This document shows, piece after piece, positions 6,278 through 30,561 of a stretch of 41,887 bases of DNA. The position numbers were made by a program, and so were the translations under genes. This stretch comes from an uncultured Candidatus Saccharibacteria bacterium (GTDB lineage: Bacteria; Patescibacteriota; Saccharimonadia; Saccharimonadales; CAYLGV01). The notes beneath the pieces are model-generated. The model was not told where the DNA came from. It saw only the letters and a list, made by a program, of their open reading frames with translations, and did no database searches. Every line of letters begins with the position of its first letter. The stretch's first letter is position 1. Location: assembly GCA_964383395.1 (NCBI GenBank), contig CAYLGV010000002.1:1-41887 (forward strand), read 5' to 3'.

Positions 6278-7081
6278 ATGATGAAAAAGTTATTTTCGAA
6301 AAAGAATAGGGTTTTATTAAGTGAATTGGTGCGCACAGATTTTAAACTGCGCTACCAGGGCTCTGTGCTTGGATATACATGGTCATTATTGCGACCATTA
6401 CTCCTATTTGTGATTTTATATATCGTCTTTGTTAAGTTCTTGAAGTTTGGCGACGACATTCCACACTTTCCAGTTTACCTATTGCTTGGAATAGTTATGT
6501 GGAACTTCTTTGCTGAAATGACCAGTCAGAGCCTTGGCTCTATTGTTGGCCGTGGAGACCTCATAAGGAAAATTCGCATACCTCGTTGGATGATCGTGTT
6601 GTCTAGCAGCTTTTCTGCACTCATTAATCTAGCACTTACACTAGTGGTTATTGCGATCTTCATGGTAATAAATCACGTTGATCCTATGCGATCGATCTTG
6701 CTATTTCCTTTGATCTTACTTCAGCTATATCTATTGGCGCTCGGATTATCACTATTCTTAGCCGCTCTTTTCGTAAAGTATCGCGACATGAGCTATATAT
6801 GGGAGGTTGTTTTGCAAGCAGGCTTTTATGCGACACCAATTATCTACCCGCTTTCAAAGATTCCAAACGAGCAATACCAGAAACTTATCCTCTTAAACCC
6901 TGTATCAACAGCAATTCAAGATGCAAGATGGGCTTTGATATCTCACCAAACTGTAACGATAAACAGCCTATTTGGTGAAAGTTATGCTCGATTAATTCCA
7001 TATACAATCACTATTGTTATTTTGATCACTGGGATCCTGTACTTCAAGCGTAAGGCACCAAACTTCGCGGAGGATCTTTAG
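6278..7081 (+). CDS. wzm: ABC-2 type polysaccharide/teichoic-acid export permease
   Basis: 267 aa with 6 TM helices. The N-terminus LVRTDFKLRYQGSVLGYTWSLLRP is typical of Wzm/TagG/KpsM permeases. The gene directly abuts the ATPase gene. Confidence 0.85.
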   Translation: MMKKLFSKKNRVLLSELVRTDFKLRYQGSVLGYTWSLLRPLLLFVILYIVFVKFLKFGDDIPHFPVYLLLGIVMWNFFAEMTSQSLGSIVGRGDLIRKIRIPRWMIVLSSSFSALINLALTLVVIAIFMVINHVDPMRSILLFPLILLQLYLLALGLSLFLAALFVKYRDMSYIWEVVLQAGFYATPIIYPLSKIPNEQYQKLILLNPVSTAIQDARWALISHQTVTINSLFGESYARLIPYTITIVILITGILYFKRKAPNFAEDL

Positions 7082-8221
7082 ATGGCAGCAATTGTTGTTG
7101 ATAAAGTCAGTAAAACTTTCAAGTTACCGCATGAGAAGCAGAACAGCATCAAAGGCTTGTTTGTAAATGCATTCAAACACAAGAGAACATTTGAAAAACA
7201 AACCGTCCTAAAAAATGTTTCGTTTCAAGTGGAAGAGGGCGATTTTTTTGCTATCGTTGGGCGCAATGGTAGTGGAAAGAGCACACTACTCAAACTACTA
7301 GCCGGCATTTATGAACCTGACAATGGTGGCATCCACGTAAACGGTAAGCTCACACCATTTATTGAGCTAGGCGTTGGCTTTAATCAAAACCTTACAGGAC
7401 GTGAAAATGTTTTTCTAAATGGTGCACTCTTAGGCTTCAGTCGCAAAGACATGCTAGCCATGTATCAAGATATTGTCGACTTTGCAGAACTCGAAAGATT
7501 CATGGATCAAAAACTGAAGAATTACTCTTCTGGCATGCAGGTTCGTTTGGCATTTTCAATCGCGATTCGTGCACAAAGCGATATTTTGTTGCTAGATGAA
7601 GTGTTGGCAGTTGGTGATGCCGCTTTCCAGCAAAAGTGTTTCAACTATTTCGAGGAGCTGAAACGCAATAAAAAAACTGTGGTGTTTGTGTCTCATGACA
7701 TGGGTGCAGTTAGGCGGTTCTGTAACAAGGCTGTATATATCGAGAATGGAAACCTTATCAAGGCGGGTACTGCACTCGAGATTGCTGATCACTATACGGC
7801 TGAGAATATTGAGTCAGCGCAAAAGGCCACCAAGGCTGACGGCTCAGTGACTAAGAACCCCAATACCATAACCTCTAAAATTGCTAGGCAAACAGATGAG
7901 TATGTGGAAGTGGAAGTAAGTTACGAGTCTAACTTGAAAGATGAATTGTACATTGGATTAGCGGTTATGCGTGATGGTATTGCAGTGGCAGAGATTTCTA
8001 CTCCTCCTAGCAGGCCATTGAAGAAGAAAGGCACTTTAATTTACCAGCTTGACATCAAAGTGTTTAATCCAGGGATTTACCAAGTGGATACTGCCCTATT
8101 CAAAGCTGATAACCGAGAGTTATTGAATTTTACGCATGTTAAACCGCGTTTTACAATTAAGGGCAATGACCCAACCAAGGGCGGTGCGTTGGCGTTGCTA
8201 GATACTTGGCAGTATAAATAG
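7082..8221 (+). CDS. wzt: polysaccharide export ABC ATPase with a C-terminal substrate-binding extension
   Basis: Walker A GRNGSGKST, signature YSSGMQVRLAFS and Walker B ILLLDE are present. An extra beta-rich domain of about 125 aa (nt 7844..8218) follows, as in Wzt/TagH-type exporters. Confidence 0.9.
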   Translation: MAAIVVDKVSKTFKLPHEKQNSIKGLFVNAFKHKRTFEKQTVLKNVSFQVEEGDFFAIVGRNGSGKSTLLKLLAGIYEPDNGGIHVNGKLTPFIELGVGFNQNLTGRENVFLNGALLGFSRKDMLAMYQDIVDFAELERFMDQKLKNYSSGMQVRLAFSIAIRAQSDILLLDEVLAVGDAAFQQKCFNYFEELKRNKKTVVFVSHDMGAVRRFCNKAVYIENGNLIKAGTALEIADHYTAENIESAQKATKADGSVTKNPNTITSKIARQTDEYVEVEVSYESNLKDELYIGLAVMRDGIAVAEISTPPSRPLKKKGTLIYQLDIKVFNPGIYQVDTALFKADNRELLNFTHVKPRFTIKGNDPTKGGALALLDTWQYK

Positions 8222-8225
8222 AGTT

Positions 8226-9296
8226 ATGCAAAGAGTTAATGTCACGAAGACCTTCTTGCCGCCATACAAAGAATATGAAGAATACGTAAAAGAAATTTGG
8301 GCCTGTGACCAACTTACAAACCAAGGCCCATTGCTCCAAACTTTTGAAGCTGAAGTCAGTAAGTTGCTTGATGTCAGTAACCTCCACTTTGTAAGTAATG
8401 GCACTGTGGCGCTACAGCTTGCCATACGGGCTTTGGGCATTACTGAAGGTCAGATAATCACTACCCCATTTACTTATGTTGCAACAGTTTCCTCAATTCT
8501 TTGGGAGCGCTGCGAGCCAGTTTTTGTAGACATTGATCCACAGACACTATGCATTGACGCTGATAAAATCGAAGCTGCTATTACCTCAGAAACCAAAGCT
8601 ATTATGCCAGTCCATGTCTTTGGTATTCCTTGCGACGTAGAGAAAATTGAGACAATTGCCAAAAAGTATAATCTAAAAGTTATCTACGACGGTGCCCACG
8701 CATTTGGTGTAGATTACAAAGGTAAGTCTCTTTTGAGCCGTGGTGATGTATCAACTTGTAGCTTCCATGCCACAAAGCTTTTCCATACCGTTGAAGGTGG
8801 CTGCGTGATCGCCAGAGATGCATCGGTGAGCGCAGAAGTTGAACTCATGAAGCACTTTGGCCACGTCGGTGACGACCACTACACACTTGGTATCAATGCC
8901 AAAGCCTCGGAGCTCCACGCTGCCATGGGCCTCTGTAACCTAAAATACCTAGAAGCCAATATTGAAGAACGAAAGCGGCTCACCAAGCTATACGAATCAT
9001 TGCTTGGTGATAAGTTTGAACGTCCCGTCATACCAGTAGAAGTAACGTACAACTATAGTTATCTTCCTGTAATTTTCAAGAGTGAAGCTGAGCTAGTTGA
9101 AAAAACCAAAACACTTAATGAGCAAGGCATCTATCCGCGACGCTATTTTTACCCGTCGCTAAATACCCTAAGTTATGTGAAGAATAAGCAAGCTTGTCCG
9201 ATTTCCGAGGATATTGCCAGCCGTGTGCTTTGTTTACCGCTTTACATAGGACTTGATGACGAAATAATAACAAGGATATGTGAGATAATTACATGA
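8226..9296 (+). CDS. DegT/DnrJ/EryC1/StrS-family PLP-dependent sugar aminotransferase
   Basis: LTNQGPLLQTFE, SNGTVALQLA and the SFHATKLFHTVEGG lysine motif are present. 356 aa. Confidence 0.9.
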   Translation: MQRVNVTKTFLPPYKEYEEYVKEIWACDQLTNQGPLLQTFEAEVSKLLDVSNLHFVSNGTVALQLAIRALGITEGQIITTPFTYVATVSSILWERCEPVFVDIDPQTLCIDADKIEAAITSETKAIMPVHVFGIPCDVEKIETIAKKYNLKVIYDGAHAFGVDYKGKSLLSRGDVSTCSFHATKLFHTVEGGCVIARDASVSAEVELMKHFGHVGDDHYTLGINAKASELHAAMGLCNLKYLEANIEERKRLTKLYESLLGDKFERPVIPVEVTYNYSYLPVIFKSEAELVEKTKTLNEQGIYPRRYFYPSLNTLSYVKNKQACPISEDIASRVLCLPLYIGLDDEIITRICEIIT

Positions 9297-9940
9297 TGAA
9301 AACTAAAGTTGTGAACAAGCTAAAACAGACCAAGCGCCAAGCTGAATTGAATGCCCAAGTGCGCCGTTTAATGAAAAAGAATCCTAAAGGTGTCATGCTC
9401 AATGTTGGTTGTGGCACTGACTATAAAGACGGATGGATAAATATTGATAACAACATGGACCAGAATATTGAAGATGATAGGCTCGATCTTAACTGGGACT
9501 TGCGTAATCCGTTACCCATGAAGGATAACAGCGTTGATTTCATTTTTAATGAACACCTTGTTGAACACCTGACGGTACCAGAAGCCGAGATTATGCTTAA
9601 AGATTTTAAACGTGTCTTAAAGCCGGGTGGTGTCATGCGTATTGCTATGCCAGACCTTGAAACAGCCATCGAGCATTATTTAAACCTACCACTTGACAAA
9701 GACCCAGTAATTAAACGCTTTAATCTGGACTACATCAAGACCCGTGCCGAGCGTATTAACATGGCATTTAGGGCGTGGGGACACATGTGGTTGTATGACG
9801 CAGAAGAGTTACGACGTCGCTTAACTGACGTTGGCTTTACTAAGATAGTGCAGTGTAAGTTCGGTAAAAGTAAACATCCTGAGCTCTGTAAACTTGAAAC
9901 CAGGGATGAGTCAATTCTCATCATGGAGGTGACAAAGTGA
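9293..9940 (+). CDS. class I SAM-dependent methyltransferase
   Basis: MLNVGCGTDYKDGWINIDN is the SAM motif I. FNEHLVEHL and LKPGGVMRIAMP are also present. The ATGA start overlaps the upstream gene. Confidence 0.8.
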   Translation: MMKTKVVNKLKQTKRQAELNAQVRRLMKKNPKGVMLNVGCGTDYKDGWINIDNNMDQNIEDDRLDLNWDLRNPLPMKDNSVDFIFNEHLVEHLTVPEAEIMLKDFKRVLKPGGVMRIAMPDLETAIEHYLNLPLDKDPVIKRFNLDYIKTRAERINMAFRAWGHMWLYDAEELRRRLTDVGFTKIVQCKFGKSKHPELCKLETRDESILIMEVTK

Positions 9941-10638
9941 AAGTTGCAATTATGCAACCTTACTTTTTACCGTATATTGGTTATTGGCAACTTATAAGTT
10001 CAGTTGATGTGTTTGTTGTTTACGATAATATTCAATATACCAAAAAGGGCTGGTTCAACCGCAACCGTATGCTTGAAATAGACCATGATCGTTTGTTTAG
10101 CATTCCACTTAAGAAAGCATCAGATTATTTAGATGTCCGTGAGCGGGAACTAAGTGATGACAGTAAAAATGAAATTGGCAAGATACTGCGAGCCATCCAG
10201 GCTAATTACCGCAAAGCCCCTTATTACAATGATGCCTATCCGGTCATTGAAGCCTGTTTTTTATCAACTGAGAGTAACTTGTTTAATTACATACATCATT
10301 CAATAAAAGCTGTTTGTGAATATCTGGATATTACTACTGAGATTGTCATATCATCATCGGTTCATATTGATCACCAGTTAAAAGCCGAAGATAAGGTGAT
10401 GGCCATCTGTAAAGCACTAGGCGCTAATACATACATTAATGCCAGTGGCGGCAAGGAGCTGTATGACAAAGCTACTTTTACGGCTAATGGCTTACAGCTG
10501 CAATTTATCAATAGCGAGCCAATCGAGTACGATCAACTAGGCAGACCATTTGTGCCTTGGCTCTCAATTTTGGATATAATTATGTTTAATTCAAAAGACG
10601 AAGCAAAGTTGTTGCTTCAAAATTTCACACTGGAGTAA
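9937..10638 (+). CDS. WbqC-like family protein
   Basis: The N-terminus KVAIMQPYFLPYIGYWQLISSVDVFVVYDNIQYTKKGWFNRN matches my recollection of the WbqC family signature. The GTG start has a GGAGGTG SD and a GTGA overlap. Confidence 0.75.
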   Translation: MKVAIMQPYFLPYIGYWQLISSVDVFVVYDNIQYTKKGWFNRNRMLEIDHDRLFSIPLKKASDYLDVRERELSDDSKNEIGKILRAIQANYRKAPYYNDAYPVIEACFLSTESNLFNYIHHSIKAVCEYLDITTEIVISSSVHIDHQLKAEDKVMAICKALGANTYINASGGKELYDKATFTANGLQLQFINSEPIEYDQLGRPFVPWLSILDIIMFNSKDEAKLLLQNFTLE

Positions 10639-11384
10639 TGATGGCAAAAAAGAACCAACTCGACGACCACGTAAGAGCCTATGAGGGAAATCTTCTCTAT
10701 GACTTTGATAACGAAATTATTCTTAAGTGGTACGCTAAGCGCATTGCAGAAAGTATTAAACCAGAAGCTAGTCTACTGGAACTTGGACTTGGCTATGGTT
10801 ACACTTCAAATATTTTCTCGGAAATTGCCAAAGATCATGATGTGATCGAAGGTTCGCAACTAGTCATAGAAAACTTTAAAAAGAACTTCCCAGATTGCCC
10901 CGTTAACGTTATTGAATCGTTCTTTGAAACTTACGAAACTGATAAAAAGTACGATCTGATCGTGATGGGCTTTATTCTAGAACATGTTGATAATCCAGTG
11001 CAGGTACTCAAGCACTATAAAAAGTTCCTAAATTCTGGGGGAGGTATTTTTGCCACTGTTCCAAATGCTGAGGTGATGAATCGTAAACTTGGTAACATCA
11101 TGGGTGTTTTACCTAACATGCAAGTATTATCTGAGCATGACCATGTTCTTGGCCACAAGCGTTATTACACGATGGATTCATTTAAGGATGATGCTAAAAA
11201 AGCCGGCTACGAGGTATCGCGCATTGAAGGAATTTACCTAAAACCACTAACTACCAAACAACTGATTTCCCTGAACCTCGATCAGTCAGTTATTGATGCA
11301 CTGTGCGTACTAGGTGTTGAATACCCCGAACTATGCTGTGCTATGATGGCCGAGCTAAAATTGCCAAACGGGCAAACGGACTAA
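10638..11384 (+). CDS. class I SAM-dependent methyltransferase (paralogue of 14606..15346)
   Basis: LLELGLGYGYTS and DLIVMGFILEHVDNPVQVLK are present. The start overlaps the upstream stop (TAATG). Confidence 0.8.
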   Translation: MMAKKNQLDDHVRAYEGNLLYDFDNEIILKWYAKRIAESIKPEASLLELGLGYGYTSNIFSEIAKDHDVIEGSQLVIENFKKNFPDCPVNVIESFFETYETDKKYDLIVMGFILEHVDNPVQVLKHYKKFLNSGGGIFATVPNAEVMNRKLGNIMGVLPNMQVLSEHDHVLGHKRYYTMDSFKDDAKKAGYEVSRIEGIYLKPLTTKQLISLNLDQSVIDALCVLGVEYPELCCAMMAELKLPNGQTD

Positions 11385-11385
11385 T

Positions 11386-12681
11386 ATGGTAGAGAAAACA
11401 AAAGTATTAATTTTCCCTGCAGGTTCAGAAATAGCACATGATATCTTTAACTCACTACGATACAATTTGCATGTAGAATTATTTGCTGCTTCCGGTAAGC
11501 CTGATGATGCCCGTTTTTTATATGATGAGAAGCATTACGTAGAAGACGAATTACTATATGTAAACCATCCCGACTTCATTGCTAGCTTCAACAAGCTACT
11601 GATAAACAACAAGATTGATATGATCATGCCTACTCATGACACAATTACCTTATACTTGGTACAGCATGCAGCCGAGTTATCTGCCAAGGTCTTGTCGTCT
11701 GATTACGAAACGGCTTTGGTGGCTCGGCAAAAGAGCCGGACCTATGACCTGTTTAAAGACGATGGTATTTGTCCAGAAATTTATGAAGCTCCATTCGAGA
11801 ACCTATCATACCCTGTGTTTATAAAACCCGACCAAGGTCAAGGGGCTAAAAATACGGCACTTTGTGAGAACAGGGATCAACTAGACTATTACTTAGCCAA
11901 CTATGATGATTTGCTTGTTTGTGAATATTTGCCAGGCGATGAGTTGAGCGTAGATTGTTTTACTGATCGACACGGCAAGCTCCTGTTTGCGGGACCCCGC
12001 ACTCGCAACCGTGTGCAAATGGGCATCACCTTTCATTCGGCCAGTGTTGAAATAACCGATGAGATTCAGCATATTGCTGATCTCATCAACACTAAGCTAA
12101 AAATTCGCGGCGCATGGTTCTTCCAAATTAAAAAGGATAAAAATGGCACTTATAAGTTGCTAGAATTTGCTGTTAGACAGGCGAGCACGATGGGCTTGTA
12201 TCGCCAAGTTGGCGTTAACTTTGCATTGTTATCTATTTTTGACATGCAGAACTTGGATGTAAAGATTCTCAAGAATGACTATCCAATAGAACTTGAGCGT
12301 AGCTTATACAACCGCTACAAGAGCAGTTTTAGTTACGACACGGTTTATATAGACTTTGATGACTGTGTAGTAGTTAATGATACTGTGAATGAAGCTGCTA
12401 TTCGCTACCTGTACTACTGCAAACGAAAAAATAAGAAGGTAATTCTGCTTACCAAACACCGCTTTGATATTAACGCAACACTCGAGAAGTACTGTATTCA
12501 TACAGGCTTGTTTAACGAAATCGTTACAATTAGTGACAGTGAAGACAAAGCCCAGTCTATTACTGAGCCTAATGCTGTTTTTATAGATAACTATTTCTTT
12601 GATCGCGATCGTGTTATGCAAGAAAAAAATATCCCCGTATTTGACGTTGATGCTATTGAAGCTTTGATTGAAGAGTCTTAA
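11386..12681 (+). CDS. ATP-grasp ligase fused to a C-terminal HAD-like domain
   Basis: Residues 1 to about 300 have ATP-grasp organisation: PVFIKPDQGQGAKN, a CEYLPGDELSVDCF region and LLEFAVRQ. From residue 321 (nt 12346) the HAD motif I YIDFDDCVV appears, followed by VILLTKH and AVFIDNYFFD. Confidence 0.7.
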   Translation: MVEKTKVLIFPAGSEIAHDIFNSLRYNLHVELFAASGKPDDARFLYDEKHYVEDELLYVNHPDFIASFNKLLINNKIDMIMPTHDTITLYLVQHAAELSAKVLSSDYETALVARQKSRTYDLFKDDGICPEIYEAPFENLSYPVFIKPDQGQGAKNTALCENRDQLDYYLANYDDLLVCEYLPGDELSVDCFTDRHGKLLFAGPRTRNRVQMGITFHSASVEITDEIQHIADLINTKLKIRGAWFFQIKKDKNGTYKLLEFAVRQASTMGLYRQVGVNFALLSIFDMQNLDVKILKNDYPIELERSLYNRYKSSFSYDTVYIDFDDCVVVNDTVNEAAIRYLYYCKRKNKKVILLTKHRFDINATLEKYCIHTGLFNEIVTISDSEDKAQSITEPNAVFIDNYFFDRDRVMQEKNIPVFDVDAIEALIEES

Positions 12682-12685
12682 CAAA

Positions 12686-13648
12686 ATGTATACATGGAAA
12701 AAGCTCGGTCACGTATTTGATCCGACTAAAGCTGATGTCGGCAACTGGATGAAAGAATTTGCACAAACCCCATCAGTGCTTATTTATGATGACTACGTAC
12801 GCATTTATTTTTGCTGCCGCCCCTTACCTGTTGATGGTATGTACGTCAGCAATCTTGCATATGTTGATGTTGATAAAACTGACCTCACAAAAGTAGTCAA
12901 GGTTTCACCAAATCCACTAATAGAATTAGGTGCACTCGGAACATTTGATGAGTTCGGGGTATACCCAGCTTCAATCATTAAACACAATAATGACATCCGC
13001 GCCTACTATGGCGGCAATACACGCTGTCAGTCGGTACCTTTTAACGCCGCTATTGGCGTGGCAGTAAGTGAAGACAACGGCGAGACTTTTAAACGCATAG
13101 GTCCCGGTCCGGTGCTTTCCTATAGTCTTGACGAACCATTTACGCTGGGTAGCCCCAAGGTTCGTATGTTTAATAACATCTGGTATCTGTGGTATACAGC
13201 CGGTAAAAAGTGGGTAGAGCATAGTGGCAGCAAAGTGCCAGTTTATAAAATTCGCATGGCCATTTCCAAAGACGGTATCTCTTGGCAAAAGCATGGCAAA
13301 GATTTGCTGGAAAGTGTGTTAGAAGAAAATGAGTGCCAAGCCAGCGCTGATGTCACCTATGCCAATGGCAAGTATCACATGTTCTTCTCATATCGTTTTC
13401 ATACTGACTTTAAAGAAAAAGGCCGTGGCTACCGGATAGGTTATGCAGTTTCGGATGATCTAATAAACTGGACTCGGCAAGATGAAAAAGCTGGCATTAC
13501 CCCATCAGAAGAAGGGTGGGACTCAGAGTCGGTTAGCTATGCGCATGTCTTTGAGTATGACCAAAAAACCTATATGCTCTACCAAGGTAATTACATGGGC
13601 AAGTTTGGTTTTGGCTTGGCTGAATTGCAAGGGGAGCTAATACAATGA
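12686..13648 (+). CDS. cytoplasmic beta-propeller-like protein, paralogue A (GH43/32/130-superfamily-like; function unknown)
   Basis: Blade-like motifs recur: SKDGISWQKHG, SDDLINWTRQ, GTFDEFGVYP and GWDSESVSY. There is no signal peptide. The track start at 12668 is TTG; I prefer the ATG at 12686 (MYTWKKLGHVFDP), which aligns with the start of paralogue B. Confidence 0.8.
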   Translation: MYTWKKLGHVFDPTKADVGNWMKEFAQTPSVLIYDDYVRIYFCCRPLPVDGMYVSNLAYVDVDKTDLTKVVKVSPNPLIELGALGTFDEFGVYPASIIKHNNDIRAYYGGNTRCQSVPFNAAIGVAVSEDNGETFKRIGPGPVLSYSLDEPFTLGSPKVRMFNNIWYLWYTAGKKWVEHSGSKVPVYKIRMAISKDGISWQKHGKDLLESVLEENECQASADVTYANGKYHMFFSYRFHTDFKEKGRGYRIGYAVSDDLINWTRQDEKAGITPSEEGWDSESVSYAHVFEYDQKTYMLYQGNYMGKFGFGLAELQGELIQ

Positions 13649-14628
13649 TGAAATGGAATAAACTCGGCCATATTTTTGACCCTACCAAATATGATTTGCC
13701 AAATAATTGCCATGAATTTGCGCAGGCACCGCAAGCCTTGGTATTTGATGACTTTGTACGCATATATTTTTCTACTCGAGAAAAAGACGCTACCGGACAG
13801 TTTCTAAGCCACATTAGTTATGTTGAAATGAGCAAAGACTTTAAGCAAGTAAAAAACGTTGCATCTAAAGCCGTCTTGCCATTGGGTGAGCTGGGGACTT
13901 TTGACGAGCATGGTATATTCCCACTTAATATTCTTCACAAAGATGATGAGATCTATGGATACATCAGTGGGATTAGCCGCCGAGTTGCGGTTTCGGTAGA
14001 CGCCTCAATCGGTTTGGCCAAAAGCAAGGACAATGGTTTGACGTTTGAGCGTAATGGACCGGGCCCAATCCTAAGCTCGTCATTATATGAACCGTTCTTG
14101 GTTTGTGATCCTTTTGTTAAATACATAGGGGATATTTATCACATGTGGTACGTCTACGGGTTGGAGTGGATTCGTGAAGCCGAGCAAGATAAGGCACCAT
14201 CACGTGTATATAAAATTGGTCATGCAACATCTGCAGATGGTATTAATTGGGAGCGCGAAGGCAAACAAATTATTAGTGACAAGCTGAACGATGATGAGTG
14301 CCAGGCATTACCAACTGTCTTTGAATACGATGGCAAGTTCCATATGTATTTCTGCTATCGCCAATCGACAGACTTTAGGACGAATAGCAGTAATGGCTAC
14401 CGACTTGGCTACGCTTATTCTGATGATCTGGTAAATTGGACCAGAGCCGATGACCAAACGGGGATAGATGTGTCAGAAGAAGGTTGGGATTCCGAAATGA
14501 TGTGTTATCCGCACGCTTTTACCTGCGATAACAAGATATACTTACTATATAATGGGAATAACTTTGGAAAGAATGGTTTCGGCATTGCTGAGTTAATAGG
14601 AGGAAATGATGACCAAACGGGATTTTAA
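13645..14628 (+). CDS. cytoplasmic beta-propeller-like protein, paralogue B
   Basis: Collinear with 12686..13648 over its full length, for example WNKLGHIFDPTK, FAQAPQALVFDDFVRIYF, GELGTFDEHG, GPGPIL, VYKIGHATSADGINWE, GYRLGYAYSDDLVNWTR and EEGWDSE. Identity is roughly 40-50 percent by eye. The ATGA start overlaps the upstream gene. Confidence 0.85.
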   Translation: MMKWNKLGHIFDPTKYDLPNNCHEFAQAPQALVFDDFVRIYFSTREKDATGQFLSHISYVEMSKDFKQVKNVASKAVLPLGELGTFDEHGIFPLNILHKDDEIYGYISGISRRVAVSVDASIGLAKSKDNGLTFERNGPGPILSSSLYEPFLVCDPFVKYIGDIYHMWYVYGLEWIREAEQDKAPSRVYKIGHATSADGINWEREGKQIISDKLNDDECQALPTVFEYDGKFHMYFCYRQSTDFRTNSSNGYRLGYAYSDDLVNWTRADDQTGIDVSEEGWDSEMMCYPHAFTCDNKIYLLYNGNNFGKNGFGIAELIGGNDDQTGF

Positions 14629-15346
14629 CAAGGAATTTAACGATAACGTAGGCCGCAAATATTCCTACAATTTTGACTACGACGTCATGAATCCGTTTAT
14701 GATTAAGTCCTTCCATCCATTTTTTGTACCAGGCAAATTATTAGAACTTGGCAGCTTTAAAGGTGAGTTTACTAAGCGCTATCTACCATATTTTGACGAC
14801 GTAACTTGTGTTGAAGCTTCTGATGTTGCCGTTCAAGAGGCTAAGAAGCTGCATGGTGACAAAGTAAAGTTTGTTAACTCTATGTTTGAAGACGCTGACT
14901 TACCTGAAAAATATGAGAACATCGTTATGACACATGTTTTGGAACATGTTGATGACCCAGTAAAAGTTCTAAAACGCGTTAATGATGAATGGCTCGCCGA
15001 TGGTGGTAAGTTTTTCTTGGCTTGCCCAAATGCAAATGCACCCTCACGACAGATTGCGGTTAAGATGGGCTTAATCACACACAATGCTGCAGTTACACCA
15101 GCTGAAGAAGCCCATGGCCACCATGTCACCTATAGCTTGGACACTTTAGAGCGCGATGCTAAAGCAGCGGGCCTAAAGGTCGTGCACCGCTCAGGTGTAT
15201 TCTTTAAGGCCTTGGCTAATTTCCAGTGGGATAAACTGCTTAACACTGACATTGTTTCAGACGAATATCTCGAAGGCTGTTATCAACTAGGCCAACAGTA
15301 CCCTGATCTTTGCTCAACTATCTATTTGGTCTGCGAAAAAGGTTAA
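14606..15346 (+). CDS. class I SAM-dependent methyltransferase (paralogue of 10638..11384)
   Basis: LLELGSFKGEFT and NIVMTHVLEHVDDPVKVLK are present. A strong TAGGAGGA SD precedes ATG 14606. Confidence 0.8.
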   Translation: MMTKRDFNKEFNDNVGRKYSYNFDYDVMNPFMIKSFHPFFVPGKLLELGSFKGEFTKRYLPYFDDVTCVEASDVAVQEAKKLHGDKVKFVNSMFEDADLPEKYENIVMTHVLEHVDDPVKVLKRVNDEWLADGGKFFLACPNANAPSRQIAVKMGLITHNAAVTPAEEAHGHHVTYSLDTLERDAKAAGLKVVHRSGVFFKALANFQWDKLLNTDIVSDEYLEGCYQLGQQYPDLCSTIYLVCEKG

Positions 15347-15352: not shown

Positions 15353-16426
15353 GTGAGCGAGCAACTTCTTACTGTTTGCCTGATTACGTACAACCACGCC
15401 AACTATATAGAGGAGGCACTCGATAGTATTTTGATGCAAGAAGTAGATGTACCGTGGGGGTTGGTCATTGCTGATGACTTTTCTACAGACGGGACTAGGA
15501 AGATACTAGAGCAGTACCAGAAGAAGCACCCAAAGTTAATCAAGCTCATTTTGCAAGACAAAAACTATGGTCCGCAAAAAAACTGGCTAGATTTAATGGC
15601 GGAGCCAAAATCAGAGTATGTACTGTATGCCGAAGGCGATGATTATTTTACTGATCCAAATAAGTTTCAAAAACAGATTGATTTTTTGGAGGCACACAAA
15701 GACTTTGCAATCTGTTTCCACCCAGTACGTGTGGTCTATGAAGGTATACAAAGACCTGATGAGATTTACCCATCATCCGCCCATCGCTTTGATAAAGAAG
15801 TGCTGGGTCTTGAAGACATCTTGACGCGTAACTTTATTCAAACCAATTCAGTTATGTACCGCTGGGGCTTCAATGACCAGGATATTAGGGATAATTTTCC
15901 TAAACAGATTTTTCCTGGTGACTGGTATTTACATATCCTCCATGCGCTCAACGGCAAGATAGGTTTTATTCCAGATGTGATGGCGGTTTACCGTCGTCAT
16001 ACTGACGGTGCGATGTGGGGATTACACACCGATAATGACAAATTTATGCTTAAGTACGGCGTAGATTGGCTTGGTATGCACGTTGCAGTTATGGAAGCCT
16101 GCCGAGATCGTAAAGAAGTAAAGAGGCTTGCCGAAGGTTCGGTTATCACCATGCTCAATACGATCGTTGCATTAGACCAAAAATACGGTGAGCATAAACT
16201 TTTAGAAGCTATTACACGCTTTCCCGAAGCCTTTGAATTATACACATATGATCTTAAAGATCAGGCAACACAATTAATTGAACATAGTGAAAAACAAGCA
16301 ACAATCATCCAACATTATGTAGACATGAGTAATGCATTAAAAGACGAAAACTTGATGATAAAGAACCGATCACTGGTAAAATTAGACAGCGCCATGAGAC
16401 GACACATAAAAAGGAGCAACAAGTAA
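15353..16426 (+). CDS. glycosyltransferase family 2 with a helical (coiled-coil-like) C-terminal tail
   Basis: LTVCLITYNHANYIEEALDSILMQ, VIADDFSTDGT and YAEGDDY (DxD) are present. The last 60 aa or so are heptad-like and charged. GTG start. Confidence 0.85.
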   Translation: MSEQLLTVCLITYNHANYIEEALDSILMQEVDVPWGLVIADDFSTDGTRKILEQYQKKHPKLIKLILQDKNYGPQKNWLDLMAEPKSEYVLYAEGDDYFTDPNKFQKQIDFLEAHKDFAICFHPVRVVYEGIQRPDEIYPSSAHRFDKEVLGLEDILTRNFIQTNSVMYRWGFNDQDIRDNFPKQIFPGDWYLHILHALNGKIGFIPDVMAVYRRHTDGAMWGLHTDNDKFMLKYGVDWLGMHVAVMEACRDRKEVKRLAEGSVITMLNTIVALDQKYGEHKLLEAITRFPEAFELYTYDLKDQATQLIEHSEKQATIIQHYVDMSNALKDENLMIKNRSLVKLDSAMRRHIKRSNK

Positions 16427-18986: not shown

Positions 18987-19910
18987 ATGAATAGCGATAT
19001 ACGCTGCCTAGTTATAGGTGCAAATGGTTTTATTGGTAGCCATCTGGTTGATGAGTTGGCAGAAGCAGGTTATCTTGTGCGTGCTTTTGATCGCTTCTCT
19101 GAACCTATCCAATATAAACAACACCAGAATATTCAAACAGTTAAAGGTGATTTTTTCAGTGAAGATGATATTAGTGAATCACTGAAGGATGCTGACTTTG
19201 TTTTTCACTCGCTCTCAATGACAACACCGTTCAGTTCAGACAACGATCCATTCACAGATATAGATAGAAATCTACGTCCAGCGGTACAGCTTTTCAACCT
19301 GTGCTTAAAGGCGGGTGTTAAGAAGGTAATCTATATGTCATCCGGAGGAGCTATATATGGGCATATCTCTGAAGAACGTGCTGCAACAGAGGATGATGCA
19401 ACAACCCCCGTTTCTCCTTACGGCATAATTAAACTCGCAATTGAGAATTATCTGGCGTATTTCAATCGTAAATTTGGGCTTGATTACACTGTTTATCGTC
19501 TCACAAATCCATATGGACCCAGGCAACAATTCCGTAACAATCAAGGAGTTATACCAGCTTTTTTGCAGCAAATCAAAGAGAAGCAAGAAGTGACTGTATT
19601 AGGTGATGGTGAAGCATCCCGTGACTATGTGTATATCCGTGACGTTACACGTATGATAACGGAAAGCTTTTACAAAAGTACTAAGTACCGCACCTATAAT
19701 ATTGGAAGTGGCAAGCAAACCACTGTTAATCAAATCATTGATGCTATTAGAAACGCCACCCATCTGGATTTTTCAGTAACTAACGTTGAGCCGCCAAAGA
19801 CATTTTTAAAAAGCGCAAACATAAGCACTGACCGTTTTCAAAACGAATTCGGTGATCATGCAACGACAAGCCTCGAAGAAGGTCTAAAAGCAACCACTAC
19901 TGAGTATTAA
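18987..19910 (+). CDS. NAD-dependent sugar epimerase/dehydratase (extended SDR)
   Basis: VIGANGFIGSHL is the Rossmann motif, and SPYGIIKLAIE is the YxxxK catalytic motif. 307 aa. Confidence 0.85.
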   Translation: MNSDIRCLVIGANGFIGSHLVDELAEAGYLVRAFDRFSEPIQYKQHQNIQTVKGDFFSEDDISESLKDADFVFHSLSMTTPFSSDNDPFTDIDRNLRPAVQLFNLCLKAGVKKVIYMSSGGAIYGHISEERAATEDDATTPVSPYGIIKLAIENYLAYFNRKFGLDYTVYRLTNPYGPRQQFRNNQGVIPAFLQQIKEKQEVTVLGDGEASRDYVYIRDVTRMITESFYKSTKYRTYNIGSGKQTTVNQIIDAIRNATHLDFSVTNVEPPKTFLKSANISTDRFQNEFGDHATTSLEEGLKATTTEY

Positions 19911-21830: not shown

Positions 21831-21842
21831 GGTAACGTTGAT

Positions 21843-21871: not shown

Positions 21872-21886
21872 TAGCTTCCAGCTCGT

Positions 21887-24447: not shown

Positions 24448-24486
24448 GTTCAGTTCAAGTATTGAACAGGTTAAACTGGAGGCGTA

Positions 24487-25952: not shown

Positions 25953-27272
25953 ATGAAAATTGGGGTAGTTGGAACGGGTTACGTTGGACTTGTGTCAGGA
26001 ACTTGTTTTGCAGAAATAGGTAATGACGTTGTCTGTGTTGACATTGACGAAGCAAAAGTTAAACGCTTGCAGAATGGTGAAATACCCATTCATGAGCCTG
26101 GTCTCGAAGACTTACTTGAGCGCAATATACGTGAAGGTAGGATGAGCTTTACGACTAAACTGGAAGATGCACTAGATGCTCAAATCCTCTTCCTGGCACT
26201 ACCTACTCCTCCTGGAGAGGACGGATCAGCTGATCTATCTTATATTCTCGGGGTTGCGGATGATATTGGCAAGCAACTCAAACAGTATATTGTCGTCGTT
26301 GATAAGAGTACGGTGCCTGTCGGCACCGCAAAGAGAGTTCACGAAGCAATCGCGGCACATTCTACGGTTGAATATGATGTAGTTTCTAACCCTGAGTTCT
26401 TGCGCGAAGGACAAGCCGTTGGCGATTTTATGAATCCAGACCGCGTTGTAGTAGGCACTTCTTCTGATCGTGCCAAGCAACTTATGCAAGAGTTGTATCG
26501 GCCGCTAGTTCGTAAGGAACCAAACAGACTTATTATTACCGATGAACCTTCAGCCGAAATGATCAAGTATGCGGCAAACGGTTTTCTAGCTACAAAGATT
26601 AGTTTCATTAACGAGCTGACCGCATTATGTGAAGCTGCTGGGGCAGATATCGATATGGTACGTAGCGGTATAGGTTCTGACAGACGCATAGGTCCTGACT
26701 TTCTTTATCCAGGCCCTGGTTATGGCGGTAGCTGTTTTCCAAAGGACACCTTGGCGCTGAAGAAAACAGGCGAGGAACACGGGGTAGAATTACGCATTGT
26801 TCAAGCGACTATTGATGCTAACGAACGTCAGAAAAAGGTTCTTCCAGAAAAGGTGATCAAGTATTACAAAGGTGATGTTAAAGGCAAGACGTTTGCTCTC
26901 TGGGGGCTAGCATTTAAAGACAATACTGATGATATTCGTGAGTCACCAGCACTTGAAATTATTCGTCAATTGACAGCGGAAGGTGCGAAGATTGTTGCCT
27001 TTGATCCTCAGGCGATCGACAATGTAAGACGAGTTATGATAGATAACAAGAATCTTTCTTTTGCGGAGAATGAGTACGATGTCTTAGAACAAGCAGATGC
27101 ACTTATTATTGCTACCAACTGGAAAGAGTTCTTTGCCCCAGATTATAAGCGTGTAAAAGATCTATTAAAGGCAGCTGTTATATTTGATGGTCGAAATCTC
27201 TACGACCTAAATGAGATGAAAGATCAAGGCTTCCACTATGAAAGTATTGGTCGACAGCCGGTTGATATCTAA
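25953..27272 (+). CDS. ugd: UDP-glucose 6-dehydrogenase
   Basis: MKIGVVGTGYVGLVSGTCFAEIGNDV, LQNGEIPIHEPGLE and the catalytic GGSCFPKD are present. 439 aa. Confidence 0.93.
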   Translation: MKIGVVGTGYVGLVSGTCFAEIGNDVVCVDIDEAKVKRLQNGEIPIHEPGLEDLLERNIREGRMSFTTKLEDALDAQILFLALPTPPGEDGSADLSYILGVADDIGKQLKQYIVVVDKSTVPVGTAKRVHEAIAAHSTVEYDVVSNPEFLREGQAVGDFMNPDRVVVGTSSDRAKQLMQELYRPLVRKEPNRLIITDEPSAEMIKYAANGFLATKISFINELTALCEAAGADIDMVRSGIGSDRRIGPDFLYPGPGYGGSCFPKDTLALKKTGEEHGVELRIVQATIDANERQKKVLPEKVIKYYKGDVKGKTFALWGLAFKDNTDDIRESPALEIIRQLTAEGAKIVAFDPQAIDNVRRVMIDNKNLSFAENEYDVLEQADALIIATNWKEFFAPDYKRVKDLLKAAVIFDGRNLYDLNEMKDQGFHYESIGRQPVDI

Positions 27273-28144
27273 GGTAAATCGTTGTTAGCCAGTAGACCCG
27301 TCAGGTATTTTCCATAGCCCGATTTGACCAAACCACTCGCGAGTTGTTGTAGCTGTTCTGCCGAGATAAAGCCTTCACGGTAAGCAATCTCTTCGGGGCA
27401 GCCAATTTTAATGCCCGTACGACGCTCAATAACTTTTATGTACTCAGACGCGTCATTCATTGATTCAAAAGTACCAGTATCAAGCCATGCGGTGCCTCGA
27501 TCAAGTAACGACACTTTTAGTTTGCCTTTTTGAAGATACGCATCGAGAACGGAAGTAATTTCAACTTCCCCGCGTTCGCTTGGCTGAACGTTCCTCGCAA
27601 TTTCTACTACTTCATTGTCACAAAAGTACAAACCAGAGTTTGCGTAATTAGACTTAGGTTTTGTAGGCTTTTCTTCGATTGACAGTACGTTCATACTTTC
27701 ATCGAACTCATATACACCATAGCGTTCGGGGTCTGTAACTTGAGCAGCAAAGCCAACAGCACCCTCAACGTTTAATAGTCCTTTGAGACTCTCCTCCATA
27801 CTTGGGCCATAGAAGAGGTTATCGCCTAAGATCATGGCCACTTTGTCGCCCCCAATAAATTCAGCACCAATTGTGAACGCTTCTGCTAGACCTTTTGGTT
27901 CGGGTTGCACTGCGTAGCTAAGGCTTATACCCCAGTCCGATCCATCCCCTAGTAGCCGCTGGAATTGTGACTGATCCTGCGGTGTTGTAATAAGGAGAAT
28001 TTCACGAATACCAGCACCCATCAGGGTACTAATAGGATAGTAAATCATCGGTTTGTCATAAATTGGCATGAGCTGTTTGCTAATGCCTTTAGTAATTGGA
28101 TAAAGACGGGTGCCAGAACCGCCAGCTAGTACAATGCCCTTCAT
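27269..28144 (-). CDS. rfbA: glucose-1-phosphate thymidylyltransferase
   Basis: MKGIVLAGGSGTRLYPITKGISKQLMPIYDKPMIYYPISTLM is close to canonical RmlA. Confidence 0.95.
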   Translation of the reverse strand: MKGIVLAGGSGTRLYPITKGISKQLMPIYDKPMIYYPISTLMGAGIREILLITTPQDQSQFQRLLGDGSDWGISLSYAVQPEPKGLAEAFTIGAEFIGGDKVAMILGDNLFYGPSMEESLKGLLNVEGAVGFAAQVTDPERYGVYEFDESMNVLSIEEKPTKPKSNYANSGLYFCDNEVVEIARNVQPSERGEVEITSVLDAYLQKGKLKVSLLDRGTAWLDTGTFESMNDASEYIKVIERRTGIKIGCPEEIAYREGFISAEQLQQLASGLVKSGYGKYLTGLLANNDLP

Positions 28145-28145
28145 A

Positions 28146-29003
28146 TTATGAAAGCTCCTTCTCTATATATGATTTCAAATCTTCTTCCCAATCTCGTGAA
28201 GTAAAACCCGTTGCTTGTATTTTAGCAAGATTAAGCGTGCTTTGAAGTGGTCGTAGTGCAACCCCCACCTTGCCAGCAAAATAATCGGTGGTAGATGTAT
28301 CAGTTACGGTAAGCTCGTTGTGGCCAGAAAGCTTGAAGATGCGACGAGTAATTTCCGCCCAACTAGTTGGCGTACCCTCATTGGTAACATTATAGGTACC
28401 AAATGGAGCGCCTTCATTAAGAAGGTGTACAATTCCTCGAACGAGCTCGCTCGTGAAAGTGAGGCGTCCGATCTGATCTGCAACCACTGTAGGTGAAACG
28501 CCTTTTTCAGCCAGTCTGAGCATTGTGCGGACAAAGTTATTTCCTTCACCAATCACCCAGCTAGTACGCAAGATGTAATATTTCTCTAACTGAGCTATCA
28601 AAAGGTCTCCTGCTGCTTTACTTGCTCCATACACAGAGAGTGGCGCTAAGGCCTCATCCTCGGTGTGAAGGTCTTTCGTGCCGTCAAATACATAGTCAGT
28701 AGATATATGCACGAGTGTCATGCTGTATATTCGTGCAACCTCAGATAAATACCCGACTGCAGTAGCGTTTACTTCCCAGGCAGCCAAGCGGCCATCTTCG
28801 GTTTCAGCGGCATCAACATTAGTGAATGCTGCTGCGTTTAAGATAACTTCTATCCCAGTCCAATCAAAACCCAGAACTGATTCACGGTCTGTAATATTAA
28901 GTTCGTAAATATCTGCCTTTTTGGCGTTAGGATACTGTGCATGTAGGGCCTGGCCAAGCTGACCATTAGCACCAACAATCATTACTTTGGAGTCGTCCAT
29001 CAC
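28146..29003 (-). CDS. rfbD: dTDP-4-dehydrorhamnose reductase
   Basis: VGANGQLGQAL, ISTDYVFDG and YGASKAAGD (YxxxK) are present. 285 aa. It sits within an rml gene cluster. Confidence 0.9.
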   Translation of the reverse strand: MMDDSKVMIVGANGQLGQALHAQYPNAKKADIYELNITDRESVLGFDWTGIEVILNAAAFTNVDAAETEDGRLAAWEVNATAVGYLSEVARIYSMTLVHISTDYVFDGTKDLHTEDEALAPLSVYGASKAAGDLLIAQLEKYYILRTSWVIGEGNNFVRTMLRLAEKGVSPTVVADQIGRLTFTSELVRGIVHLLNEGAPFGTYNVTNEGTPTSWAEITRRIFKLSGHNELTVTDTSTTDYFAGKVGVALRPLQSTLNLAKIQATGFTSRDWEEDLKSYIEKELS

Positions 29004-29556
29004 ACCCTCAGGACTTCTTTAAGTGAAGAGCTATTTAGATCTTTTTCCGAGATAATCATACCTTTACCAAGTTTAATCGGCCAGTCAATTGCAAGTTCAC
29101 TGTCGAGAGGGTTGCATGCAAGGCCAGGCATGTCGGGACGCCACTCATCCTCAAAGTAATATAGGTAAACTGAAGGTTCGTCACTCGTTGACTGAAATGA
29201 GTTGCCAAGGCCACTCGAGATAAATAGACCCTCTCCTCGACGTAGAGTAAAACCTTGCCACTTACCAGCAGTTGGAGATTCTTTGCGTAGATCAACAATA
29301 GCTGCGTAAACTTCGCCACTGGCAACAGACACAAGCTTATGAGCAAACTCTGCATGTACGCCCCGCAAAGCACCTTTCACGGTCAGGGGCGCGTTAACCT
29401 GTGGTCGTTCACCCAGACTTGGTAGGCCAGCTGCTTCAAATTCAGACTGACGATAGAATTCCATAACTGAGCCACGTTCGTCTTTAAAGACCTTGTACTT
29501 TACGGTATATAGCCCTTCGATTGTGGTTCCTTCGACTTTGAGGGTGGACTGGCTCA

Positions 29557-29557
<1 letters not shown>
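29000..29557 (-). CDS. rfbC: dTDP-4-dehydrorhamnose 3,5-epimerase
   Basis: Cupin-type RmlC features are present (FKDERGSVMEFY, RGVHAE). I prefer the ATG at 29557, which overlaps the rfbB stop (TAATG). The track extension to 29614 lies inside rfbB. Confidence 0.88.

Positions 29558-30561
<1,004 letters not shown>

Follow-up and report, generated by a model that had tools for sequence, protein, structure and literature searches.

A conserved pair of cytoplasmic five-bladed beta-propeller proteins in a widespread bacterial amino-sugar cassette

What are two tandem propeller proteins, built on a classic 'hydrolase' fold, doing inside a biosynthetic operon? This question was raised by a 41,887-nucleotide stretch of DNA from an uncultured Candidatus Saccharibacteria bacterium (assembly GCA_964383395.1, contig CAYLGV010000002.1, positions 1 to 41,887), referred to here as the window. 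The two proteins, PropA and PropB, are encoded among the following features.

6278..8221, + strand: Wzm/Wzt ABC exporter (ABC2_membrane, ABC_tran), giving the context of an ABC-transporter-dependent surface polysaccharide
8226..9296, + strand: DegT-family sugar aminotransferase, VioA/DesI-like, core (PF01041, E 3.5e-88)
9293..9940, + strand: MT1, class I SAM methyltransferase, locus-specific accessory (Pfam)
9937..10638, + strand: WbqC-family protein, core (PF08889, E 6.6e-72)
10638..11384, + strand: MT2 methyltransferase, part of the ATP-grasp accessory module (Pfam)
11386..12681, + strand: Ter-type ATP-grasp ligase, accessory alternative to GNAT (PF15632)
12686..13648, + strand: PropA, cytoplasmic five-bladed beta-propeller, A-clade of the pair (ORF, AF2 model, Foldseek)
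13645..14628, + strand: PropB, paralogous propeller, B-clade (ORF, identity to PropA, clade separation)
14606..15346, + strand: MT3, NodS/Methyltransf_23-like methyltransferase, core (Pfam)
15353..16426, + strand: GT2 glycosyltransferase, often found after the cassette (PF00535)
27269..30555, - strand: rmlA, rmlD, rmlC and rmlB, in window order (Pfam), for dTDP-4-keto-6-deoxyglucose supply

PropA is a 320-aa protein read from an ATG start (the ORF listing stretches the frame to a TTG at 12668), and PropB has 327 aa. Full-length BLASTP gave 48% identity and 66% positives over 320 aligned columns (E 3e-110), well above chance level and in agreement with the first-pass annotation of this DNA, which had described two collinear paralogues with roughly 40-50% identity. 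The S-x-DG-I-x-W and DDL-x-NWTR motifs that it had pointed out are present in both proteins (SKDGISW and SDDLINWTR in PropA, SADGINW and SDDLVNWTR in PropB). No 19-residue window in PropA, PropB or 162 homologues reached TM-like hydrophobicity, and no signal peptide was found among these homologues, every N-terminus being hydrophilic; the scan supports the cytoplasmic location first read from the sequence. Translational coupling through ATGA overlaps had also been claimed for the neighbouring genes. It holds for the PropA stop and PropB start (ATGA at 13645-13648), but not for the ATP-grasp gene, which ends at 12681 and leaves a 4-nt gap before PropA at 12686, nor for the methyltransferase junction, where MT3 (ATG at 14606) overlaps the 3' end of PropB by 23 nt.

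The AF2 model of PropA (pLDDT 94.4, pTM 0.93) is all-beta, with about 20 strands forming a propeller that fills the whole chain. Foldseek searches with this model retrieved GH137, GH130, GH43, GH32 and GH117 propellers at TM 0.6-0.76. There were 375 PDB matches at E ≤ 0.001, and the best 50 of the 375 all belonged to the five-bladed propeller clan, with a top E of 3e-15 and TM 0.70-0.76 to GH137 and GH130. The GH43/32/68/130-like propeller fold proposed at first pass is therefore borne out, and an unrelated fold is no longer in question.

Sequence comparisons placed the nearest relatives of the pair among the GH130 beta-1,2-mannoside phosphorylases (profile E 9e-17 and 3e-15). The GH130 profile PF04041 scored 20.7 bits on PropA, under the GA of 26, and 30.7 bits on PropB, yet with only residues 189-248 aligned; the NCBIfam GH130 equivalogs gave 55.8 and 49.6 where the cut-off is 450. 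The GH32 profile PF00251 reached 40.2 and 27.6 bits (GA 22.1) by aligning about 80 residues to profile positions 15-89, a blade-level similarity, and the C-terminal beta-sandwich found in GH32 is absent, the propeller occupying the whole of both chains. The GH43 profile PF04616 gave 18.7 bits on PropB against a GA of 32.2 and had no match on PropA, and the GH137 profile had an E of 4e-10, its match being partial and shifted (NCBIfam 22.8 versus 1800). The pair's partial profile matches comprise GH32N, GH130, GH43, BNR_4 and GINT1_N. Placement in any single GH family was rejected, as the Pfam, NCBIfam and PDB phmmer/hmmsearch matches were partial and mutually inconsistent. PropA and PropB belong to none of the GH families named at first pass, and their resemblance to GH families is at the clan level only, through blade-shifted partial profile matches. 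They form a distinct uncharacterised family within the five-bladed clan (GH43, GH32, GH68, GH117, GH130, GH137), a new branch of a known fold inside a largely unstudied pathway.

PropA and PropB fall into separate orthologous clades, with about 65% identity within clades and about 45% between them. A word-index search turned up more than 4,900 homologues of PropA, and there were 4,089 clusters at 50% identity. PropA has 57-62% identity with its orthologues, which come from at least 10 phyla, and PropB 52-65% with those of the B clade. The duplication behind the pair is ancient, not an event local to this operon; that it has been functionally retained, as the earlier reading held, is supported by two clades that have never parted. 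The PropA-PropB junction measured ≤ 100 nt in 83 of 83 cases, and insertions were found at other cassette junctions. The pair is obligate, and the genetics suggests that it is probably a heteromer. A rare single-copy propeller form, which retains 18 of the 19 near-invariant residues described below, would fit a homomer-to-heteromer history. PropB is fused to GNAT in P0122, P0125 and P0134, and one GNAT-MT3 fusion was seen; these fusions link the pair to one and the same intermediate.

Gene order in the cassette is DegT, WbqC, PropA, PropB, GNAT or ATP-grasp, MT3 and often GT2, and the window contains the five-gene synteny DegT-WbqC-PropA-PropB-MT3 between 8226 and 15346, with PropA directly upstream of PropB. 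Across 85 PropA-anchored loci, all of which had the pair in a sugar-pathway cassette, PropA was counted in 85, PropB in 84, MT3 in 79, WbqC in 78 and DegT in 77. An independent MT3-anchored metagenome sample gave the cassette with the pair in 37 of 40 loci. These counts confirm the biosynthetic setting recognised at first pass and dispose of the idea that the orthologues are routinely secreted hydrolases unlinked to glycan loci. The proposed tie to an ATP-grasp ligase did not hold up in the same way, since no more than about 20 of 81 loci have this gene along with the pair; DegT, WbqC and MT3 are the partners that stay constant. GNAT alone occurred in 53 loci, ATP-grasp alone in 17 and both in 3. 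MT2 was present in 23/85 loci, almost always with the ATP-grasp module, and an MT1 homologue in 2/85 only. The C-terminal tail of the ATP-grasp protein (about 130 aa) had no Pfam or PDB match, and a HAD-phosphatase reading of it found no support from either source.

The other members of the cassette link it to dTDP-viosamine-type chemistry. The best NCBIfam match of the window's DegT was DesI, and the gene had a DNA-level match to E. coli vioA. RmlA and RmlB often adjoin the cassette, with no RmlC/D beside them at 45% identity or above, and in locus L010 RmlA is placed within the cassette. MT3 is the best-conserved member (65-77% identity in 79/85 loci) and matches the 'hypothetical protein' of PDB 2P7H/2P7I at E 4.6e-117, a crystal structure that has had no function attached since 2007. 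The AF2 model of WbqC (pLDDT 91) had a best PDB fold match at E 0.1 and TM 0.32, and was rejected as a functional clue for want of a significant match; a nucleotidyltransferase role for WbqC is hypothetical, and the idea that its PYIGY resembles HIGH is speculative. A literature search, which was incomplete, returned no functional study of WbqC or DUF377. In 25/85 loci, and in a Rhizobium plasmid cassette, MT3 is immediately followed by a GT2 homologue. The cassette is found in ABC-transporter and Wzx/Wzy polysaccharide loci, in flagellin glycosylation islands and on Rhizobium plasmids. It is conserved and horizontally mobile, and it builds a modified amino sugar for surface glycans and flagella.

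The E. coli O123/O186 locus resembles this arrangement, with rfbB, rfbA, DegT (a DNA-level match to the window's), WbqC and then GNAT; its WbqC is 38% identical to that of the window (E 6e-58). It differs in having neither propellers nor MT3, and a DNA search of E. coli found none of these. The slot after WbqC is instead occupied by an unrelated 324-aa protein, here protein X, followed by a MaoC hydratase. Protein X was considered as a hidden propeller and rejected, as it is not a propeller, and no support was found for a DegT/PLP-like assignment. The O123/O186 sugar is named as 4-{N-[(S)-3-hydroxybutanoyl]-D-alanyl}amino-4,6-dideoxyglucose in a title cited in PMC7685785. Since O123 carries an aminoacylated viosamine made via DegT, WbqC and GNAT without propellers, the pair would add a further step, dispensable for the basic aminoacyl-viosamine route.

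A pathway can be proposed on this basis. RmlA/RmlB would supply dTDP-4-keto-6-deoxyglucose, which the VioA-like DegT would convert to a 4-amino-4,6-dideoxyhexose. An aminoacyl or acyl group would be attached, most likely by WbqC or by an L-amino-acid-ligase-type ATP-grasp in its place, and the amine would be capped by GNAT or, as in the window, by the Ter-type ATP-grasp module. MT3 would provide the methylation step, and the product would be installed by a single conventional glycosyltransferase, GT2 or, next to flagellin, GT41. PropA and PropB would act within this route as an obligate pair of cytoplasmic enzymes, probably a heteromer.

The conserved residues indicate what kind of enzyme this may be. 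The A and B clades have 66 near-invariant residues in common, among them Q27, R45, D88, E89, R113, E150, E216, Q218, H231, R237, R264, D266 and D279, and across phyla 19 residues that are polar or charged hardly vary in either clade. The model and alignment place D88/E89, E150, E216 and D279 just before innermost blade strands. Five invariant Arg, together with a His and a Tyr, would be in keeping with a phosphate or diphosphate as ligand. Blade I of the pair has E-F-A-Q-x-P as its innermost strand, in which Q27 is invariant, and contains no invariant Asp; GH32 has its nucleophile there (in a WMNDPNG-type motif) and GH43 an Asp of its Asp/Asp/Glu triad, an equivalence by position and not by superposition. 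On this positional reading, the Gln in place of the catalytic Asp argues against water-activating hydrolysis. The pair shares with GH32 and GH43 the fold clan and the S-x-DG-x-x-W blade motifs, and with GH32 a Glu at the start of blade IV (E216-C217) that we take to correspond to the 'EC' motif. It differs from both in its blade-I Gln and in being cytoplasmic and biosynthetic.

Two further groups of enzymes bear on this. The GH137 beta-L-arabinofuranosidase domain of BT_0996 (PDB 5MT2/5MUI), a large pectin (RG-II)-degrading enzyme of a gut Bacteroides, comes closest in structure (TM 0.75/0.69 at E 3e-15, with about 349 columns aligned), but it has only 16-17% sequence identity and no biosynthetic context. 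The GH130 phosphorylases (PDB 7FIP, 9FJ8/9GPH) are likewise single-domain, cytoplasmic five-bladed propellers of about 300 aa and, by position, also lack a blade-I Asp and hence a water-activating base. Their identity to PropA is 16-18%, and the profile alignments cover only part of the chain and are offset by two blades, which leaves residue equivalences unproven; a mapping of catalytic residues via 7FIP was rejected for this reason. The invariant D88/E89 and the five invariant Arg would at most be candidates for the Asp proton donor and the basic phosphate pocket of GH130. GH130 enzymes serve catabolic mannoside utilisation, whereas the pair sits in a biosynthetic amino-sugar cassette, and we know of no obligate A/B pairs among them. 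A synthetic role has a precedent in GT108 of Leishmania, a family of tandem paralogues with the GH130 fold. These mannosyltransferase/phosphorylases build cytosolic beta-1,2-mannan from a nucleotide-sugar or sugar-1-phosphate donor, a GH130-type propeller working synthetically in the cytosol. They are eukaryotic, however, make a storage homopolymer and have no link to amino-sugar cassettes.

By analogy with these enzymes, we tentatively favour a non-hydrolytic, GH130/GT108-style glycosyl transfer on the cassette sugar, with an anomeric centre as the site of reaction. A sugar activated by phosphate or an NDP would be moved onto the cassette's own conserved sugar, with one or both paralogues being catalytic. 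The phosphorylase or transferase role put forward at first pass is plausible as a hypothesis. Several observations run against transfer. The pair's identity of about 60% across phyla is like that of RmlA/RmlB-type enzymes, against 30-44% between loci for the cassette GT2, and its genes lie among the precursor genes and not beside the glycosyltransferase, so that it looks more like nucleotide-sugar-modifying enzymes than glycosyltransferases. Compact islands already have one conventional glycosyltransferase each, so extra transferases are not required; the propellers as sole glycosyltransferases of flagellin islands were rejected, as TPR-GT41 or HMW1C-like glycosyltransferases were present in 4/4 flagellin-adjacent loci examined. 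In two propeller-less cassettes (L136 and L150) the slot of the pair holds protein X and a PhyH-type dioxygenase, which hints at tailoring of a substituent and not at transfer.

Non-glycosidic tailoring of the soluble dTDP-sugar is the main rival, although we consider it unlikely. It would consist of acid/base chemistry on the hexose ring or of action on the N-acyl/aminoacyl group installed by WbqC. The pair's level of cross-phylum identity speaks for this reading. The pair sits between WbqC and GNAT/MT3, in a slot that protein X, a member of the D-alanyl-Qui4N route in E. coli O123, can fill instead, and the lack of a redox partner in the cassette agrees with acid/base chemistry that needs no cofactor. 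The PropB-GNAT fusions recall FdtD, a bifunctional ketoisomerase/N-acetyltransferase, and DegT and N-acyltransferases again accompany a very distant propeller pair, which has no WbqC or MT3 beside it. On the ring, one such reaction would be epimerisation adjacent to the 4-keto group, with one centre per paralogue and conserved carboxylates, Tyr and His taking part. Against tailoring stands the clan itself, whose characterised members, to our knowledge, all act on glycosidic bonds, so that this would be new chemistry for the fold. MT3 is moreover equally similar (71%) in L136 and L150 and in propeller-bearing cassettes; the pair therefore probably leaves the part recognised by MT3 unchanged, which counts against ring epimerisation upstream of MT3.

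Cytoplasmic cleavage of a glycosidic or sugar-nucleotide bond by a processing hydrolase or phosphorylase, as in PseG-like release of the sugar from dTDP, proofreading against aberrant intermediates or recycling, seems quite improbable. It would agree with the fold and the nearest relatives, which are hydrolases and phosphorylases, with the PGAP label of PropA ('glycosylase') and with the pseudaminic acid pathway, in which DegT and GNAT are followed by a nucleotide-sugar hydrolase. However, no NeuB/PseI-like synthase or kinase was found in the cassette to re-activate a freed sugar, blade I has a Gln at what would be the general-base position, and one would not expect the gene of a purely corrective enzyme to be duplicated, translationally coupled and invariably part of the core. 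That the propellers, a common type of scaffold, are non-catalytic sugar-binding subunits kept as a heterodimer to scaffold or give specificity to MT3, GNAT or WbqC would agree with the strict co-occurrence with MT3 and with the fusions, but is very improbable given the 19 near-invariant residues, the active-site pattern of carboxylates before the innermost strands and the functioning of MT3, GNAT and WbqC in cassettes without propellers.

Taking transfer and tailoring together, it is possible, though we hold this with some doubt, that the PropA/PropB heteromer carries out a reaction new to the GH43/32/130 fold, either a cofactor-free, non-glycosidic change of the dTDP-amino sugar or its aminoacyl substituent or the work of a bacterial GT108-like synthase. 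With WbqC, whose fold lacks a solved relative, and MT3 it would then mark out a new and widespread route to a modified 4-amino-4,6-dideoxyhexose, as yet undescribed, that is carried on O-polysaccharides and flagellins across more than ten phyla. The cassette occurs in thousands of genomes and metagenomes, its carriers including plant pathogens (a Dickeya flagellin island), rhizobial symbiosis-era plasmids, methanotrophs and candidate-phyla bacteria, and no reaction is assigned to three of its five core proteins. Once assigned, the reaction of the pair would correct the routine annotation of propeller genes as degradative GH32, GH43 or 'glycosylase' enzymes and would tell whether bacteria have turned a classic hydrolase fold to biosynthesis, in the way of GT108 in Leishmania. 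A new surface-sugar modification affecting flagellin and O-antigen recognition would be identified as well.

The two propeller proteins are encoded by adjacent, collinear ORFs, followed by the gene for a methyltransferase (MT3) of NodS/Methyltransf_23 type:

12686-13648, forward strand: PropA, 320 aa
13645-14628, forward strand: PropB, 327 aa
14606-15346, forward strand: MT3, in family terms nearly identical to PDB 2P7H/2P7I (E 4.6e-117), an entry titled 'hypothetical protein'

PropA and PropB aligned end to end with 48% identity (E 3e-110), in keeping with the 40-50% estimated in the first-pass annotation. A hydrophobicity scan of the pair and 162 homologues detected no signal-like or TM-like segment, confirming the proposed absence of both. 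The ATGA coupling had been extended to the flanking genes; it was found where the PropA stop overlaps the PropB start, but not at the ATP-grasp gene, which ends 4 nt before PropA, or at MT3, which starts 23 nt within PropB.

The AlphaFold2 model of PropA (68 sequences) was all-beta, with a pLDDT of 94.4 and a pTM of 0.93. Foldseek against the PDB returned 375 matches with E ≤ 0.001, the best 50 of which were all five-bladed propeller glycosidases or phosphorylases. The top match was GH137 BT_0996 (E 3e-15, TM 0.75), followed by GH32, GH117, GH43 and the GH130 beta-1,2-mannoside phosphorylases 7FIP and 9FJ8/9GPH (TM 0.70-0.76). The propeller fold proposed from the sequence was therefore largely right. 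The same phosphorylases were the nearest solved proteins by sequence (E ~1e-7 with single sequences, 9e-17 with a family profile), the profile alignment to 7FIP being rotated by two blades. Matches to the GH32N, GH130, GH43, BNR_4 and GINT1_N profiles were all partial and disagreed with one another, and NCBIfam equivalog scores reached about one tenth of the cut-offs. From these fold and profile matches, we conclude that PropA and PropB belong to the five-bladed propeller clan and to no curated GH family. They are a new, uncharacterised family of known fold.

Comparison of 81 PropA and 81 PropB non-redundant sequences showed two classes, with ~65% identity within and ~45% between them. Sixty-six columns had the same residue in both classes, with conservation of at least 95%, including Q27, R45, D88, E89, R113, E150, Y170, Y187, E216, Q218, H231, R237, Y249, R264, D266, W278, D279 and Y285. 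According to DSSP of the model, acidic residues lie just before the innermost strand in blades II (D88/E89), III (E150), IV (E216) and V (D279). In GH43 and GH32 the catalytic Asp is in blade I; PropA and PropB would have a Gln at this position, equivalence being judged from predicted secondary structure rather than superposition.

PropA had more than 4,900 homologues, the best 120 of which were all at least 59% identical, and a PropB search of 50%-identity representatives recovered 4,089 clusters. Scanning species-representative genomes gave 80 loci from Bacteroidota, alpha-, beta- and gamma-Proteobacteria, Campylobacterota, Chloroflexota, Verrucomicrobiota, Patescibacteria, Omnitrophota, Chlamydiota, Nitrospirota, Chlorobiaceae and Smithella. 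PropA and PropB are thus two ancient classes found across phyla, and not the local duplication suggested earlier. A PropB orthologue lay 3' of PropA in 84 of 85 loci; the junction was at most 100 nt in 83 of 83 loci (at most 20 nt or overlapping in 77), and gene insertions were tolerated at the WbqC-PropA, PropB-MT3 and DegT-WbqC junctions. One rare locus, L172, encoded a lone propeller keeping 18 of 19 shared residues. The two classes, the fixed junction and this single copy form the pattern expected if, as we predict, a homomer became an obligate heteromer. The single-propeller cassette of L172 (5622-7531) is followed by a GNAT::MT3 fusion ORF truncated by the contig end. The 5,844-aa homologue P0121, with 31 PropB-matching stretches (32% identity), seems from its sequence to consist of a giant array of such propeller units.

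The biosynthetic context put forward in the first-pass annotation was also largely correct, the pair being part of a sugar cassette. In the 85 loci, selected by PropA similarity and so representing a core clade, tblastn with the window proteins detected PropA in 85, PropB in 84, MT3 in 79, WbqC in 78 and DegT in 77. MT3 was the most conserved member (65-77% identity), and a GT2 lay downstream in 25 of the 85. The commonest order was DegT-WbqC-PropA-PropB-GNAT-MT3(-GT2), with the small GNAT between PropB and MT3 in 53 loci. In 17 loci an ATP-grasp module replaced it, located between WbqC and PropA; the module also contained a methyltransferase (MT2), with either a metallophosphoesterase or a C-terminal tail and, in many cases, an SDR. 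GNAT and the module occurred together in three loci. Since the window is an ATP-grasp variant, its ligase is an accessory alternative to GNAT and not the key partner it had been taken for. An independent MT3-anchored metagenome sample contained the pair in 37 of 40 loci with sufficient upstream sequence. Of two more distant members, one retained the entire cassette, and the other had two propellers, DegT and N-acyltransferases, with WbqC and MT3 absent. Fusions of PropB to GNAT (P0122, P0125, P0134) and of GNAT to MT3 (L172) indicated that PropB, GNAT and MT3 work on one intermediate.

RmlA and/or RmlB adjoined the cassette in ~10 loci, for instance RmlA between DegT and WbqC (L010) or RmlB-RmlA directly 5' of DegT (L092); RmlC/RmlD were never found beside it at ≥45% identity. 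The window DegT was nearest to C4 aminotransferases (DesI, perosamine synthase) and had a match to E. coli vioA that extended to the DNA sequence. The gene order of the O123/O186 cluster of E. coli is rfbB-rfbA-wzx-DegT-WbqC-X-GNAT-MaoC, and its WbqC is 38% identical to that of the window. With DegT accounting for amination and GNAT plus MaoC for the hydroxybutanoyl cap, WbqC, with protein X, is left for the alanyl group. Three Bacteroidota loci had an L-amino-acid-ligase-type ATP-grasp exactly at the WbqC position. From the Rml neighbours, the DegT kinship, the O123 route and this replacement, we infer that the product is a dTDP-4-amino-4,6-dideoxyhexose with an aminoacylated or acylated amine, the roles given here to WbqC, GNAT and MT3 being putative. 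Its N-cap would be acetyl or an acid added by the ATP-grasp enzyme, and the sugar would also be methylated. An IS-flanked glycan module on the small E. coli plasmid pLAU-OXA3 (L091; NZ_CP045280.1 18671-32882) encodes a dehydratase, RfbA, a flippase-like protein, DegT, GNAT, an ACC-deaminase-like PLP enzyme, ATP-grasp and a GT, and neither WbqC nor propellers; judged by gene content, it is probably another aminoacyl-amino-sugar variant.

Three further components were analysed:

9937-10638, forward strand: WbqC-family protein (AlphaFold2 pLDDT 91)
12286-12678, forward strand: C-terminal tail (~130 aa) of the ATP-grasp ORF 11386-12681
L088:10478-11452, L090:8478-9452, L136:2247-3206, L150:2425-3396: protein X (~320 aa)

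The WbqC family is very large (~8,000 scored matches). Its model had no significant PDB fold match (best E 0.1, TM 0.32), and a literature search of patchy coverage found no functional study. Speculatively, its P-Y-I-G-Y loop after strand 1 lies where HUP-class nucleotidyltransferases carry HIGH. The ATP-grasp tail had no Pfam or PDB match; L006, L017 and L067 keep it, at 46-50% identity, with the same type of ATP-grasp. Since a stand-alone metallophosphoesterase takes its position in related loci, the tail may have a phosphatase-like role; by eye only, a motif resembling DxD was noted. Protein X had no Pfam match. It always lay 3' of WbqC, both in the O123/O186 loci and in the two MT3 cassettes that lack propellers (40% identity, E 6e-68), and is a candidate WbqC partner in making the D-alanyl substituent.

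The cassette occurred in several settings. The window represents the ABC-transporter type, with Wzm/Wzt, a WaaL-like protein, a double GT4, an initiating Bac_transf and BacA; Wzx/Wzy loci also carried it, and Rhizobium leguminosarum plasmids had it as a compact stand-alone unit. Flagellin-adjacent cassettes were accompanied by TPR-GT41 or HMW1C-like transferases, and in Dickeya zeae WH1 the cassette lies between fliA and fliC (PMC9650423). Other features of the window were:

2432-2821, forward strand: PIN-domain protein, putative toxin, at the glycan-locus edge
7082-8221, forward strand: Wzt ATPase, 379 aa, ABC domain in residues 43-174 only
16427-18946, forward strand: 839-aa protein, GT4-type matches in residues 474-816 only
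19897-23818, reverse strand: three ORFs (444, 199 and 643 aa) between two glycan operons
23989-25923, forward strand: GtrA-like small membrane protein, then a 478-aa FAD/amine-oxidase-type oxidoreductase
33025-34857, reverse strand: GlmS

By analogy with other ABC-dependent O-polysaccharide exporters, which have a glycan-cap-binding domain, the long C-terminal part of Wzt could be one. The 839-aa protein, whose N-terminal ~470 aa had no assignment, might polymerise the ABC-dependent glycan, and the GtrA-like protein and oxidoreductase may be an extra glycan-modification pair. The 444-aa ORF ends in a DUF5648 domain; the 199-aa and 643-aa ORFs had no Pfam match. The best GlmS match was 78% identical, the only named relatives being Candidatus Saccharimonadales MAGs at ~62%. 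Because these relatives are Candidatus Saccharimonadales, 'O-antigen' may not be a fitting term for the surface glycan here. The lineage is sparsely sampled. The contig nonetheless carries genes for a Wzy_C/WaaL-like ligase and for Wzm/Wzt.

The O123 route runs without propellers, and in L136 and L150, both MT3 cassettes, protein X, GNAT and a PhyH-type dioxygenase stand in the pair's place. The pair is therefore an added module, outside the basic aminoacyl-viosamine chemistry. The degree of MT3 conservation was the same whether or not a cassette contained the pair, an argument against epimerisation of the ring before the MT3 step. Action on a soluble precursor is favoured by high cross-phylum conservation (against 30-44% for GT2), by embedding among precursor-pathway genes, by fusion with GNAT and by the single conventional GT per compact island. 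To our knowledge, every characterised member of the propeller clan acts on glycosidic bonds, which by analogy points to glycosidic chemistry. So do the missing blade-I Asp and the many invariant Arg, by which the pair would resemble phosphorolytic or synthetic GH130/GT108 enzymes and not hydrolases. Weighing this fold prior against the genomic context, we tentatively favour a non-hydrolytic reaction in which a glycosyl group is transferred to the sugar made by the cassette. Non-glycosidic tailoring, which would agree with the context and depart from the clan-wide activity, is rather unlikely. A processing hydrolase or phosphorylase is improbable, and a non-catalytic scaffold is very improbable. 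Collectively, these data indicated that PropA and PropB are an obligate pair inside a sugar cassette that is widespread and largely unstudied.
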